A stretch of DNA of 63,788 nucleotides, filler included, from Candidatus Rokuibacteriota bacterium (lineage in GTDB: Bacteria; JAUVQV01; DATDCY01): NCBI GenBank assembly GCA_031406795.1. It is 5 parts of 5 records of this genome, joined end to end, with 100 filler letters (N's around TTAATTAATTAA, not from the genome) between each part and the next. Parts side by side here need not be neighbours in the genome. Positions count along the whole stretch, not along the records: positions 25,364 to 35,597 come from JANOHV010000064.1; 4 more parts are not named here. One strand, 5' to 3'. Both the position numbers and the translations under genes were made by a program. Below, piece after piece: positions 5,022-35,697 of the stretch (the first letter of the stretch is position 1; each line of letters starts with the position of its first letter). A model generated the notes under the pieces. It saw nothing but the letters and a program-made list of their open reading frames with translations, made no database searches and had not been told where the DNA came from.

Positions 5022-5121
5022 NNNNNNNNNNNNNNNNNNNNNNNNNNNNNNNNNNNNNNNNNNNNTTAATTAATTAANNNNNNNNNNNNNNNNNNNNNNN
5101 NNNNNNNNNNNNNNNNNNNNN
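5022..5121. other. Artificial contig linker
   Basis: N-run + TTAATTAATTAA (stops in six frames) + N-run, 100 bp. Confidence 0.98.
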
Positions 5122-15389: not shown

Positions 15390-15489
15390 NNNNNNNNNNN
15401 NNNNNNNNNNNNNNNNNNNNNNNNNNNNNNNNNTTAATTAATTAANNNNNNNNNNNNNNNNNNNNNNNNNNNNNNNNNNNNNNNNNNNN
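15390..15489. other. Artificial contig linker
   Basis: N-run + TTAATTAATTAA + N-run. Confidence 0.98.
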
Positions 15490-25263: not shown

Positions 25264-25363
25264 NNNNNNNNNNNNNNNNNNNNNNNNNNNNNNNNNNNNN
25301 NNNNNNNTTAATTAATTAANNNNNNNNNNNNNNNNNNNNNNNNNNNNNNNNNNNNNNNNNNNN
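25264..25363. other. Artificial contig linker
   Basis: N-run + TTAATTAATTAA + N-run. Confidence 0.98.
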
Positions 25364-28912: not shown

Positions 28913-28993
28913 TCGCAGCGTCATTCGCGGCGGCGGAATCCCGCGGCGGCGACCAGCATCCAACCCGCACCATTGAAAGCGGAGGTGTTATTC

Positions 28994-29422
28994 ATGCGCA
29001 AGGCCTTGAAGATCGGTGCAGTGGCGGTTCTGCTCGCGCTCGTCGGCGGCGCCGTCGGTTACGTCATGATCGGCCCTTCGTCGGCGACGTCGGCTGCCGC
29101 GGGGAGTTACCGGACAATTACCCCGCTCGAGGCGAAATCGCTCATCGAGACACGAAAGGACCTGCTGCTGGTGGACGTCCGTTCGCCGGAGGAATTCCAG
29201 GGCGGCACACTGCCGGGCGCCACGCTCATCCCCTTCTGGGATTTCGCCAAAGGCCGCTACGATCTTCCCAAGGACAAGCCGATCCTGCTGATCTGCGCCG
29301 TCGGCGGACGCAGCCTGGCGTGCGGCCAGATACTCGCGGCTCAAGGGTACAAGGAGGTCTACAACCTCAAGGGCGGCCTCGACGCCTGGGTCGAGCAGCG
29401 CGTCCCGCTACCCCGGCGCTAG
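28994..29422 (+). CDS. Rhodanese-like domain protein with N-terminal anchor
   Basis: LVDVRSPEEF..G.LPGA, ICAVGGRS, VYNLKGGLDAW. Confidence 0.92.
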   Translation: MRKALKIGAVAVLLALVGGAVGYVMIGPSSATSAAAGSYRTITPLEAKSLIETRKDLLLVDVRSPEEFQGGTLPGATLIPFWDFAKGRYDLPKDKPILLICAVGGRSLACGQILAAQGYKEVYNLKGGLDAWVEQRVPLPRR

Positions 29423-29436
29423 GCGCCGCGCGGCGG

Positions 29437-29775
29437 CTAGGGCGGCGGGAGCATCGTCTTCAGGGCCGGCAGGGTCACGTCGCGGTGCGAGGCGTGCGCG
29501 ACTGCCTTGCCCCCGACGAGGCAGATGACCTGCGGGGACTCATGCGGTACGCCGGTGCGCTCGGCGACTGCAAGCGAGAGCGGGCGGTTTTCGCGCACGA
29601 GCACCTCGACGCAGCGCGCCTCGCTATTCCCTTCGGCAAATCGCAGGAACTCGGACCGAGCTCCGGCAGAAATGGGTCAGGTCGTCGAGTGCTTGAGCAG
29701 CAGGACCGGCCGCGCGGCGCTTTCGGTCAGACACTGCTCGAAGTCCTGCAGACACAGAATTCTTTCGATACTCAC
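29437..29775 (-). CDS. ytxJ: YtxJ/BrxC-family thioredoxin-fold protein, predicted selenoprotein (UGA at codon 33)
   Basis: GGAGG RBS + GTG; LLKHSTT-UGA-PIS where the family has KHSTTCPIS; the frame continues through V.ENRPLS..VAERTGVPHESPQVI...HASH to TAG. Confidence 0.88.
29646..29664 (-). promoter_or_regulatory. Bacterial SECIS-like hairpin
   Basis: GGAGCTC-GGTCC-GAGTTCC starting 12 nt after the UGA; GGUC apical sequence as in the E. coli fdhF SECIS. Confidence 0.7.
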
Positions 29776-29813
29776 GCGCCTTCCTCCCGGTGGTGGTGGC
29801 TCGCGCCGATCAG

Positions 29814-32438
29814 CTAGATCAGCTTGAGCAGTTCTTCCAGAGCCGCATCCACTTTCCCGACGTCCTTGCCGCCGGCGGTCGCCATCTCGGGCTTGCCGCC
29901 CCCGGACCCGCCGCACACCGCGGCCACCTTCTTCACGAGGTCCCCGGCCCGGTGCGTGCCGACGAGGTCCCGCGTGACGCCGCAGGCGAACGCCACCTTG
30001 CCCTCGGTGACCGACGCCAGCAGCACGACCCCGCTCTGGAGCTTGTCCTTGAAGTGATCGACGGTGGTGCGCAGCGTGTCCATGTCCAGCCCATCCATGC
30101 GCGCCGCCAGCACTTTCACGCCGTTGATCACCTGGGCTCTCTCGGTGGGGTCGCCCCCGGCCCCGCGGGCGAGCCTGGCCTTGAGATCGGCAACCTCTTT
30201 CTCCAGACCCCGGACCTGTTCGGCCAGCCGGTCGGCGCGCCTGGCCGCCTCGCGCGGGCCGACCTTGAGCGCGGCGGCGACCGCGGCCAGATCGCGCTCG
30301 GCTTCGAGCACCGCGCAATAGGCGCCCTCGGCCGTCGCGGCCTCGATGCGGCGCACCCCGGACGCCACGCTGCCCTCGCTGAGGATCTTGAAGAAGCCGA
30401 TCTCGCCGCTGCGCCCGACATGGATGCCGCCGCAAAGTTCGGAGGAGACGCCCGGGATGGTGATGACGCGCACCCGATCGCCGTATTTTTCACCGAAGAT
30501 CGCCATGGCGCCGGAAGCCACCGCCTGTTCGAGCGACTTCTCCTCCTTGTGCACGGTGTGGTCGGCCCAGACCGCGGCGTTGACCTCCTCCTCGACCGTA
30601 GCCAGTTCGGCGGCGGTGACGCCGGAGAAGTGCGTGAAGTCGAAGCGCAGCCGGTCGGCTTCGACATGCGAGCCGGCCTGCTTGACGTGGTCGCCGAGCG
30701 CCTTGCGCAGCGCGGCCTGGAGCAGATGCGTCGCGGTGTGGTTGCGCGCGATGCGGCGGCGCCGGCCCGCGTCGACGGCGGCGGTCACCAGGTCGCCTTG
30801 GGCGAGCACCCCCTCCACGAGCCGGCCGCGGTGCAGGGTGTAGCCCTTCCAGTGCTTCTTCGTATCGGCGACGAGCAGCAGGCCCTTCTCGCTGCGGATT
30901 TCGCCCCGGTCGCCGGCCTGTCCGCCGCTCTCGGCGTAGAACGGCGTGCGCTCGAGCAGCACCTCGATGTCGTCGCCGGCCGCCGCGGCCGCGACCCGCT
31001 CCTCGCCCCGGAAGATCGCGGCGACCCGCGACTCGCCCTCGGTGTGCGTGTAGCCGGCGAAAGCCGTCTCCGGCAGACCGCCGAGCAGCTTCGGCCACGA
31101 GCCGACCGCCGTTTCGCCCGAGCCGACCCACGAAGCGCGAGCGCGTTCGCGCTGCGTGCGCATCGCGGCCTCGAAAGCCGCGTGGTCGAGGCCCAGTCCC
31201 TGCTCCTCGGCAATCTCGCCCGCCAGATCGAGGGGGAACCCGTAGGTGTCGTAGAGCCGGAAGAGGTCCTCGCCGCCGAGGAGCCCGGCGCCGGCGTTCT
31301 TCGCCTTCGCCATGATCTCCTGGAGCAGCCCGAGGCCCAGCTCGAGCGTGTGCGTGAAGCGCTCCTCCTCGACTTTCGTCACGCGCCGCACGAACTCCAG
31401 GTGCGTCGCCAGTTCCGGGTAGGCCCCCTGCATCGCCTCGACGACGACCTCGACGCCCGTGTGCAGGAACGGCTCCGAGAGTCCGAGCATCTTGCCGTGG
31501 CGGGCGGCGCGCCGCATGATCCGGCGCAGCACGTACCCGCGGCCTTCGTTGGACGGCAGCACGCCATCGCCGATCAGAAACGTAGTTGCCCGCAGGTGAT
31601 CGGCGATGACGCGCATCGAGACGTCGCTCTTCGCGTCCGCGCCGTAACTCTTGCGGCAGGCCACGGCGATGAAGCCGAGCAGCGGCGTGAACAGGTCGGA
31701 GTCGTAGTTGCTCTGCCGCCCCTGGACGACGGCGGCCAGGCGCTCGAGCCCCATGCCCGTGTCGATGCTCGGCTTGGGCAGCGGCGTCAGCGTGCCGGCC
31801 GCGTCGCGGTTGAACTGCATGAAGACCAGGTTCCAGATCTCCAGATAGCGGTCGCAGTCGCAGCCGACGGCGCATTCGGGCCGCCCGCAGCCGACCGCAG
31901 GGCCCTGGTCGATCAGGATCTCGCTGCACGGGCCGCAGGGCCCGGTGTCCCCCATCTGCCAGAAGTTGTCCTTCTCGCCGAGCCGGATGACCCGCGCGGG
32001 CGGCAGCCCCGCGATCTTCGGCCAGAGCGCCGCGGCCTCGTCGTCGTCGCGAAAGACGGTGGCCCAGAGGCGGTCCTTGGGCAGGCCCATGCCCTTCGTC
32101 AGGAACTCCCAGGCAAAGGCGATGGCGTCGGCCTTGAAGTAGTCGCCGAAGGAGAAGTTGCCGAGCATCTCGAAGAACGTGTGGTGGCGCGCGGTGCGCC
32201 CGACGTTCTCCAGGTCGTTGTGCTTGCCGCCGGCGCGGACGCACTTCTGCGAGGTCGTCGCGCGGGTATAGGCGCGCCGATCCTCGCCGAGGAAGACGTC
32301 CTTGAACTGGACCATGCCGGCGTTGGTGAACAGCAGCGTCGGGTCCTTGGCGGGAACAAGCGTCGAGGAGCGGATCACCTCGTGCCCGTTCGCCGCGAAG
32401 AATTCCAGGAATTTCGCTCGGATCTCGTTGCCTCTCAC
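29814..32438 (-). CDS. alaS: Alanine--tRNA ligase
   Basis: DPTLLFTNAGM, RHHTFFEMLGNFSFGDYFK, IDTGMGLER, NHTATHLL, ELCGG.H, GGSGGGK. Confidence 0.98.
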   Translation of the reverse strand: MRGNEIRAKFLEFFAANGHEVIRSSTLVPAKDPTLLFTNAGMVQFKDVFLGEDRRAYTRATTSQKCVRAGGKHNDLENVGRTARHHTFFEMLGNFSFGDYFKADAIAFAWEFLTKGMGLPKDRLWATVFRDDDEAAALWPKIAGLPPARVIRLGEKDNFWQMGDTGPCGPCSEILIDQGPAVGCGRPECAVGCDCDRYLEIWNLVFMQFNRDAAGTLTPLPKPSIDTGMGLERLAAVVQGRQSNYDSDLFTPLLGFIAVACRKSYGADAKSDVSMRVIADHLRATTFLIGDGVLPSNEGRGYVLRRIMRRAARHGKMLGLSEPFLHTGVEVVVEAMQGAYPELATHLEFVRRVTKVEEERFTHTLELGLGLLQEIMAKAKNAGAGLLGGEDLFRLYDTYGFPLDLAGEIAEEQGLGLDHAAFEAAMRTQRERARASWVGSGETAVGSWPKLLGGLPETAFAGYTHTEGESRVAAIFRGEERVAAAAAGDDIEVLLERTPFYAESGGQAGDRGEIRSEKGLLLVADTKKHWKGYTLHRGRLVEGVLAQGDLVTAAVDAGRRRRIARNHTATHLLQAALRKALGDHVKQAGSHVEADRLRFDFTHFSGVTAAELATVEEEVNAAVWADHTVHKEEKSLEQAVASGAMAIFGEKYGDRVRVITIPGVSSELCGGIHVGRSGEIGFFKILSEGSVASGVRRIEAATAEGAYCAVLEAERDLAAVAAALKVGPREAARRADRLAEQVRGLEKEVADLKARLARGAGGDPTERAQVINGVKVLAARMDGLDMDTLRTTVDHFKDKLQSGVVLLASVTEGKVAFACGVTRDLVGTHRAGDLVKKVAAVCGGSGGGKPEMATAGGKDVGKVDAALEELLKLI

Positions 32439-35597: not shown

Positions 35598-35697
35598 NNN
35601 NNNNNNNNNNNNNNNNNNNNNNNNNNNNNNNNNNNNNNNNNTTAATTAATTAANNNNNNNNNNNNNNNNNNNNNNNNNNNNNNNNNNNNNNNNNNNN
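35598..35697. other. Artificial contig linker
   Basis: N-run + TTAATTAATTAA + N-run. Confidence 0.98.

Follow-up and report, generated by a model that had tools for sequence, protein, structure and literature searches.

The stretch of DNA analyzed here (the window; 63,788 nucleotides [nt], filler included) comes from Candidatus Rokuibacteriota bacterium (assembly GCA_031406795.1) and carries on its minus strand a brxC/ytxJ gene in which an in-frame UGA stands at the position of the catalytic cysteine (Cys). When TGA was translated as selenocysteine (Sec, U), the gene ran through 112 codons from a GTG start to a TAG stop (Table 1). The TGA is codon 33, flanked as K-H-S-T-T-TGA-P-I-S, with 79 sense codons between it and the stop. 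The listing of open reading frames (ORFs) under translation table 11 contains only fragments at this place, such as an ORF of 55 amino acids (aa) at 29604..29437. An earlier interpretation made from the DNA letters alone (the sequence-only reading) had described the motif KHSTT-TGA-PIS with 79 further in-frame codons, a hairpin with a GGUC apex 12 nt past the UGA, co-orientation with alaS at a distance of 38 nt downstream of it, and a gene missed by the ORF track. Rereading of the minus strand, the coordinates, and the table 11 listing agreed with this description throughout. The degenerate pattern KHSxT-TGA-xxS...HxSPQ matched once in the window and never in 100 shuffles, which is more than chance would give.

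Table 1. Positions of the brxC/ytxJ gene, its elements, and the adjoining genes, counted along the window
Feature	Position	Strand	Details and basis
brxC/ytxJ, full length	29437..29775	minus	112 codons: GTG start (29775-29773), UGA as Sec codon 33, TAG stop (29439-29437); translation with TGA = U
In-frame UGA at catalytic Cys position (T-U-P-I-S)	29677..29679	minus	Codon 33, TGA at 29679-29677; aligned to the Cys of 3IV4 and to the invariant C33 column
SECIS-like hairpin GGAGCUC-GGUCC-GAGUUCC	29646..29664	minus	Fold; bSECIS rules
Shine-Dalgarno-like GGGAGGAAGG ahead of the GTG start	29779..29788	minus	Direct reading of the sequence
alaS, co-oriented, 874-aa ORF	29814..32438	minus	ORF listing; stop TAG at 29816-29814, leaving a 38-nt spacer upstream of brxC
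Convergent gene, presumably rhodanese-like, 149-aa ORF	28973..29422	plus	ORF listing; stops 14 nt from the brxC stop; context only

A BrxC/YtxJ redoxin with UGA at the active site

The gene product, 112 residues long, is a thioredoxin-fold redoxin and belongs to the BrxC/YtxJ family of monothiol bacilliredoxins. For profile scoring the U was read as C. The product matched the Pfam model BrxC (PF11009) with 93.2 bits over residues 9 to 102 (cutoff, 24.2) and the NCBIfam model TIGR04019, described as "bacillithiol system redox-active protein YtxJ," with 97 bits over residues 9 to 106 (cutoff, 77.25). With both models over their cutoffs, the assignment to the YtxJ/BrxC family in the sequence-only reading was correct. 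The dedicated selenoprotein models of NCBIfam gave no match at an E value of 0.01 or lower. One related solved structure, PDB 3IV4, matched in sequence with an E value of 5e-14, and U33 aligned to the Cys of its T-C-P-I-S motif; in 43 aligned Cys homologues the same column is an invariant Cys (C33). An AlphaFold2 model built from a 44-sequence alignment had a mean predicted local distance difference test (pLDDT) score of 96.7 and placed residue 33 at the opening of helix 34-49, after strand 24-29. The best PDB match of this model was again 3IV4 (template modeling [TM] score of 0.87; root mean square deviation of 1.3 Å over 106 columns), with thioredoxins next. The T-U-P-I-S context is kept, with Ser at +3 and no resolving Cys in that position. 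Because the residue is encoded by UGA and not by a Cys codon, the protein belongs to the BrxC/YtxJ family as a Sec/Cys variant.

The sequence-only reading had named shared UGA codons in relatives as a check and TGC or TGT in reads as evidence to the contrary. A YtxJ gene is present in four of six genomes of the phylum, in each case with one TGA at the Cys codon; the two genomes without a YtxJ match are 88% and 77% complete. Metagenome contigs were searched with only the 79 residues that follow the UGA, and the search was therefore not biased towards TGA. It returned 21 loci. All 12 loci with 73 to 83% identity and the active site on the contig have TGA, one more is cut before the active site, and eight distant loci (37 to 54% identity) have Cys. 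The relatives named as a check thus share the UGA, and the TGA is also kept on contigs assembled from two other samples.

Selection on the protein was evaluated on each side of the UGA with the ratio of nonsynonymous to synonymous substitution rates (dN/dS) in 14 pairs against the window, a set that left out locus L052, whose N-terminus is off its contig. The 30 codons preceding the UGA had a median of 0.21; after it, the medians were 0.12 for 17 codons and 0.10 for a 46-codon core. Coding is conserved on both sides of the UGA.

Hairpin and selenocysteine machinery

A hairpin, GGAGCUC(G)-GGUCC-(C)GAGUUCC, begins 12 nt after the UGA. Its stem has 7 to 8 base pairs (bp), and in an alternative drawing an eighth G-C pair leaves a GUC loop. 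The consensus for the bacterial selenocysteine insertion sequence (SECIS; bacterial form, bSECIS), as given in PMC13188914, has an apical loop of 3 to 9 nt with a G in the first two places, a stem of 4 to 16 bp, a distance of 16 to 37 nt from UGA to loop, and an energy of -7.5 kcal/mol or lower. These rules were applied with a checker that considers stems without bulges and the energy of the hairpin alone. The hairpin in the window passes (-10.3 kcal/mol; loop GUC or GGUCC; spacing, 19 to 20 nt), and so do all 15 distinct sequences of its clade, at -8.4 to -12.8 kcal/mol with spacings of 19 to 20 nt. When distinct forms from all lineages were compared, 26 of 33 Sec forms passed versus none of 19 Cys forms, and the median best energies were -9.7 and -2.9 kcal/mol, respectively. 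The 10 Cys forms from the G+C-rich Symbiobacteriaceae-labeled order all failed, the best of them at -7.0 kcal/mol.

Codon choice within the stem is restricted. All 16 sequences use GCT for Ala in the stem, a codon that accounts for 4.6% of the Ala codons in the genome, and all 16 use GGA or GGG for Gly, which together account for 35% of the Gly codons in the genome; third positions just outside the stem vary. Across the 15 distinct clade sequences, 99% of the cells are paired. In a second clade, 10 of the 11 aligned Sec forms have U as the loop base at alignment column 27 (codons CGT in nine, GGT in one, and CGG in one), compared with none of 10 Cys forms from the same order (CGG in eight, CAG in one, and AGG in one). 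Hairpin sequences are lineage-specific: GGAGCUC/GAGUUCC here, GCCCAC/GUGGGC in the Symbiobacteriaceae-labeled forms, and CGGCCUU/GAGGUCG in Methylomirabilota.

The source genome is a metagenome bin of 278 contigs with an estimated completeness of 99.9% and contamination of 3%. The sequence-only reading had suggested a search for selA, selB, selC, and selD, and the genome yielded selA (541 bits, over the cutoff), a C-terminal piece of SelB with SelB-wing_2, SelB-wing_3, and SelB beta-barrel domains that is cut by a contig start, selD (351 bits), and tRNA-Sec with anticodon UCA (69 bits). The selD gene, which lies outside the window (G000:C234:8400-9320; locus L010), has one in-frame TGA of its own, and thus the selenophosphate synthetase itself looks like a selenoprotein. 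In a genome of the same genus, a full-length selB (352.6 bits) shares a contig with the TGA-containing ytxJ. Among the five other genomes of the phylum, selB is over the cutoff in four. Of the genomes with TGA forms from the pattern scan described below, five were tested, and selA is over the cutoff in all five.

Two alternatives were discarded. An artifact of binning was set aside because the same-genus genome has selB and the TGA-containing ytxJ on one contig. Recoding of TGA throughout the genome was set aside because TGA is the commonest stop codon of the 1762 long ORFs, ending 1030 of them (TAG, 557; TAA, 175).

Sec and Cys forms across lineages and in public records

Scanning 185,579 species genomes for the sequence pattern gave at least 11 loci, each encoding a complete YtxJ protein with one TGA, at the Cys position; this number is a lower bound because the scan was restricted to the AAG codon for lysine. 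Two of the loci are labeled Candidatus Rokubacteria/Rokuibacteriota, one Candidatus Methylomirabilis, and seven Symbiobacteriaceae/Bacillota/Clostridia. One locus (L040) from a metagenome-assembled genome labeled Mycobacterium leprae carries a Symbiobacteriaceae-type Sec-YtxJ. Its genome falls in the Symbiobacteriaceae-labeled order, and thus the Mycobacterium leprae label of the bin looks wrong.

Within the Symbiobacteriaceae-labeled order, the family is present in all 19 genomes, of which nine have the TGA form, nine have only Cys forms, and one has a partial gene with TAG. One of the nine TGA carriers has both a Sec and a Cys copy of ytxJ on a single Symbiobacteriaceae-type contig, in tandem and about 60 nt apart (L084/L096); the Cys copy reads T-D-C-Q-I-S, and no SECIS-type hairpin accompanies it. 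In the Methylomirabilota-labeled phylum, the family is present in 7 of 251 genomes, with TGA at the Cys codon in five and Cys in two. The motif is U-P-[T/L]-C in four of the five TGA forms and C-G-V-C in one Cys homologue (L100-L103 and L097 for these five sequences together). These UxxC and CxxC motifs make the Methylomirabilota branch of a "monothiol" family dithiol-like.

A tree of 66 sequences (30 Sec and 36 Cys; 115 columns) was made with a quick method. It left out L038-L040, L042, L045, and L048, which repeat sequences or hairpins of rows already in, as well as the cut L061, the partial L095, and the later-fetched L097-L103. The tree needs 11 changes between Sec and Cys, at least four of which are forced by its starred branches. 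The approximately unbiased (AU) test rejected the best tree that groups all Sec forms (P = 5.1e-6). The AU rejection, the changes on the tree, and the lineage-specific hairpins together point to multiple exchanges between Sec and Cys within the BrxC/YtxJ family. Repeated exchange of this kind was described for other redox selenoproteins in a 2006 survey (PMC1794560, available in part).

Public gene calls break these genes at the UGA. Thirteen of 20 homologues of the window protein are fragments of 61 to 69 aa that begin after the UGA, and one further homologue is an after-UGA fragment plus an unrelated tail. These 14 are the closest homologues, at 70 to 85% identity; the six full-length homologues have Cys and only 45 to 64% identity. 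Two NCBI-sourced records are stumps of 80 and 81 aa named "monothiol bacilliredoxin BrxC family protein," and the 81-aa stump (P0070), which starts right after the UGA, is on the 7,238-bp contig of L040. A JGI-sourced full-length relative, P0022, has W at the Sec position, its pipeline having apparently read TGA as Trp. Because such gene calls lack the active site, the family is under-counted in selenoproteome surveys, and the truncated proteins in databases are misleading.

Whether Sec forms of this family had already been catalogued was a question that the sequence-only reading had left open. The answer is a provisional no. Table 1 of PMC13188914 (2026), with 119 selenoprotein families and subfamilies, presents itself as the most comprehensive selenoprotein inventory, and the whole table has no entry for BrxC, YtxJ, PF11009, or TIGR04019. 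None of these four names is mentioned in the deep-Sep paper (PMC12013277). Of the 12 selenoproteins of Symbiobacterium thermophilum in the 2006 survey, none belongs to the BrxC/YtxJ family in the available portion of that paper. We found no literature joining YtxJ with selenocysteine or DUF2847 with selenoprotein, and none in which at least three of these family and selenium terms (PF11009, TIGR04019, and BrxC included) occur together; a search for bacilliredoxin with selenocysteine gave nothing on a Sec form, as judged by titles and the openings of abstracts. Therefore, the Sec form of BrxC/YtxJ is probably uncatalogued, with some relevant selenoprotein lists falling outside this comparison.

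Proposed function, alternatives, and known systems

The window consists of five contigs (or parts of contigs) of the bin, joined by runs of N at 5022-5121, 15390-15489, 25264-25363, and 35598-35697. The brxC gene sits on a 10,234-bp contig at 25364-35597, and because the window is made of joined contigs, arguments from gene neighborhood are confined to these positions. The alaS and brxC genes are probably on a shared transcript. The C-terminus of alaS lies upstream of the gene at 12 of 15 clade loci versus none of 18 loci of other lineages. In the spacer between the two genes, behind 29807, an RNA-library contig from a relative carries 18 additional letters, a repeat of the local GATCAGCTA motif, and the copy number of this short direct repeat differs between relatives. 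On the other side of brxC, a homologue of the convergent gene occupies the same convergent place at five clade loci. We take its product to be rhodanese-like from our own reading of its sequence, which was made without a scan of a family library. A functional link in which this gene serves sulfur or selenium transfer with the seleno-redoxin is possible.

Bacillithiol is the glutathione substitute of many bacteria. The genes bshA, bshB, and bshC, which the sequence-only reading had also listed as a check, were found as one cluster, bshC-bshB-bshA, with the three genes adjacent on a single contig and all over their cutoffs (BshC, 380.7 bits; BshB1, 222.8 bits; BshA, 475.6 bits). This result indicates that the genome is presumably able to make bacillithiol. 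According to the available part of PMC8113031, BrxC of B. subtilis de-bacillithiolates proteins via a single active-site residue, C31, which is itself bacillithiolated meanwhile, and Bdr (YpdA) is the reductase in this pathway. The anatomy of the gene, taken with the known bacterial mechanism, suggests that SelB with Sec-tRNA(Sec) would bind the hairpin 12 nt behind the UGA and deliver Sec to codon 33. By analogy with B. subtilis BrxC, the selenolate of U33 might then attack the mixed disulfide between a protein and bacillithiol, which would free the protein thiol and form an Se-S-bacillithiol intermediate on the enzyme. A second bacillithiol, or a reductase, could resolve this intermediate. 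As neither BrxA/B nor Bdr/YpdA was found in the genome, the seleno-redoxin looks like the only recognizable bacilliredoxin of the organism.

The brxC product is most likely a real selenoprotein, with the insertion of Sec predicted from the sequence and bacilliredoxin activity predicted by analogy. We consider it likely that the protein is a BrxC/YtxJ-family monothiol bacilliredoxin in which Sec, delivered by the expected SelB/SECIS route, replaces the catalytic Cys. The Sec machinery, the shared UGA, and the bsh genes lend support to the Sec-containing monothiol redoxin that the sequence-only reading had put forward.

Several observations weigh against this interpretation. The selB of the source genome, cut as it is by a contig start, scored 130.5 bits, below the cutoff of 242.25, and the bin itself is fragmented into its 278 contigs with the estimated contamination of 3%. 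The SECIS checker is a simple, home-made, no-bulge implementation, and several of the Cys controls come from organisms of lower G+C content. A 66-nt fold of this G+C-rich sequence was no more stable than shuffles (z score, -0.95; 35 of 200 shuffles folded at least as well). Covariation is thin in the clade of the window, with one compensatory pair and 22 of 500 shuffles reaching the observed score, and compensatory covariation is absent in the second clade. An Rfam scan of 29300-29900 on both strands gave no match at an E value of 10 or lower; to our knowledge, Rfam has no model for a bacterial SECIS. The best match to YpdA/Bdr in the genome had 47 bits against a cutoff of 339.9, and BrxA/B (PF06491) had no match in this genome of 99.9% estimated completeness. 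These missing partners leave the recycling step and the substrate less certain than the rest of the proposed mechanism. In addition, one RNA run covered part of the alaS of a relative but not the brxC gene.

Some of these points would fit a real BrxC-fold selenoprotein that does not act on bacillithiol mixed disulfides and is instead a general selenol/thiol oxidoreductase, a peroxide or sulfenic-acid reductase, or a selenium or sulfur carrier tied to the rhodanese. The failure to find the canonical partners, Bdr/YpdA and BrxA/B, speaks for such a role, and so does the conservation of the rhodanese-like convergent neighbor in five loci. A further point is the sparse occurrence of the family in the Methylomirabilota-labeled genomes, where the U-x-x-C motif in most TGA forms indicates that the chemistry varies within the family. 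However, the bshC-bshB-bshA cluster of the genome is complete, the protein passes TIGR04019, a model described as that of the bacillithiol-system YtxJ, and the only member of the family to have been tested acts as a bacilliredoxin (PMC8113031, from the part available). We therefore regard a function apart from bacillithiol as rather unlikely.

The other alternatives concern the UGA itself. If it were a true stop, the locus would be a pseudogene, or would encode a 32-residue peptide and a downstream fragment, consistent with the fragments that table 11 yields, with the public gene calls in relatives, which are C-terminal pieces of 61 to 82 aa, and with TGA as the usual stop of the genome. This possibility is barely credible when TGA is found at the same codon in 16 clade sequences whose proteins diverge by as much as about 55%, and dN/dS is 0.1 to 0.2 before as well as after it. 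The downstream fragment would have no active site, and in the window the next in-frame start is 25 codons on; moreover, decay would hardly leave every relative with this one stop and free of other lesions. It is also very improbable that the UGA is read as a standard amino acid (Trp, Cys, Gly, or Arg) by near-cognate suppression or under a reassigned code. The W in P0022 illustrates that a pipeline can read the codon in this way, but the number of long ORFs that end in TGA leaves no room for genome-wide reassignment, and Trp, Gly, or Arg in place of the invariant catalytic Cys would kill the redox function. The presence of selA in every further carrier genome tested, and a SECIS-type hairpin that goes with TGA forms and not with Cys forms, argue for Sec over any of these amino acids.

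No selenium enzyme tied to bacillithiol was found in the literature searched. On balance, we lean toward the view that this protein is the first selenoprotein of the bacillithiol system, a "seleno-bacilliredoxin" that serves as the only bacilliredoxin of an organism without Bdr or BrxA/B, in a family in which Sec arose or was exchanged with Cys at least four times across three phylum-level groups. If this is true, then bacillithiol and selenium systems are linked, and the whole recognizable bacilliredoxin function of the organism rests on its selenium supply. One more family would be added to the catalogue of prokaryotic selenoproteins, and truncated annotations could be corrected. The family also offers natural Sec/Cys pairs, in the form of tandem copies in one genome, an order split nine to nine, and some U-x-x-C forms, that are suited to asking why Sec replaces Cys in monothiol exchange catalysts. 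We consider this a modest but real addition, in that the Sec form recurs in at least three phylum-level groups and is systematically truncated by annotation.

The protein resembles B. subtilis BrxC (PMC8113031, in the part available) and the staphylococcal-type protein of PDB 3IV4 in its matches to PF11009 and TIGR04019, its length, its thioredoxin fold, its T-x-P-I-S context with Ser rather than Cys at +3, and its co-occurrence with bshA/B/C. It differs from B. subtilis BrxC in that the catalytic residue is encoded by UGA with a SECIS hairpin inside the ORF, and in that Bdr/YpdA and BrxA/B were not found in its genome. The genomic context differs as well, with alaS here in contrast to the ytxGH-brxC stress operon of B. 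subtilis described in the same source. The in-ORF stem-loop just after the UGA is like the SECIS of the E. coli fdhF type and the bSECIS consensus (PMC13188914, in part), with a loop of 3 to 5 nt that starts G-G/U, a stem of 7 to 8 bp, and an energy below -7.5 kcal/mol. Its sequence is unrelated to these elements, it is one of several hairpins that each belong to a single Sec-BrxC lineage, and its binding by SelB is predicted.

Single Sec residues with Ser or Thr at +3 are known from other families. Table 1 of PMC13188914 includes arsenate reductase TIGR00014 (UxxS), peroxiredoxin-like cd02970 (UxxS), and distant Grx-like protein 1 NF041114 (UxxT), in which, as here, the residue at +3 implies that an outside thiol must resolve the intermediate. 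These families are unrelated or related only at the level of the fold, and none of them is tied to bacillithiol. The same table lists Sec-glutaredoxin (PF00462, UxxC) and Sec-thioredoxin (PF00085, UxxC) as experimentally verified. Like them, the protein described here is a small thioredoxin-fold redoxin with Sec in place of the N-terminal active-site Cys and with widespread Cys homologues, and it is predicted to be made by the same bacterial SelB/SECIS route. However, Sec-glutaredoxin and Sec-thioredoxin are dithiol-type UxxC proteins of the glutathione or thioredoxin systems, whereas the putative seleno-bacilliredoxin is a mono-selenol UxxS protein that belongs to another Pfam family and would work with bacillithiol.

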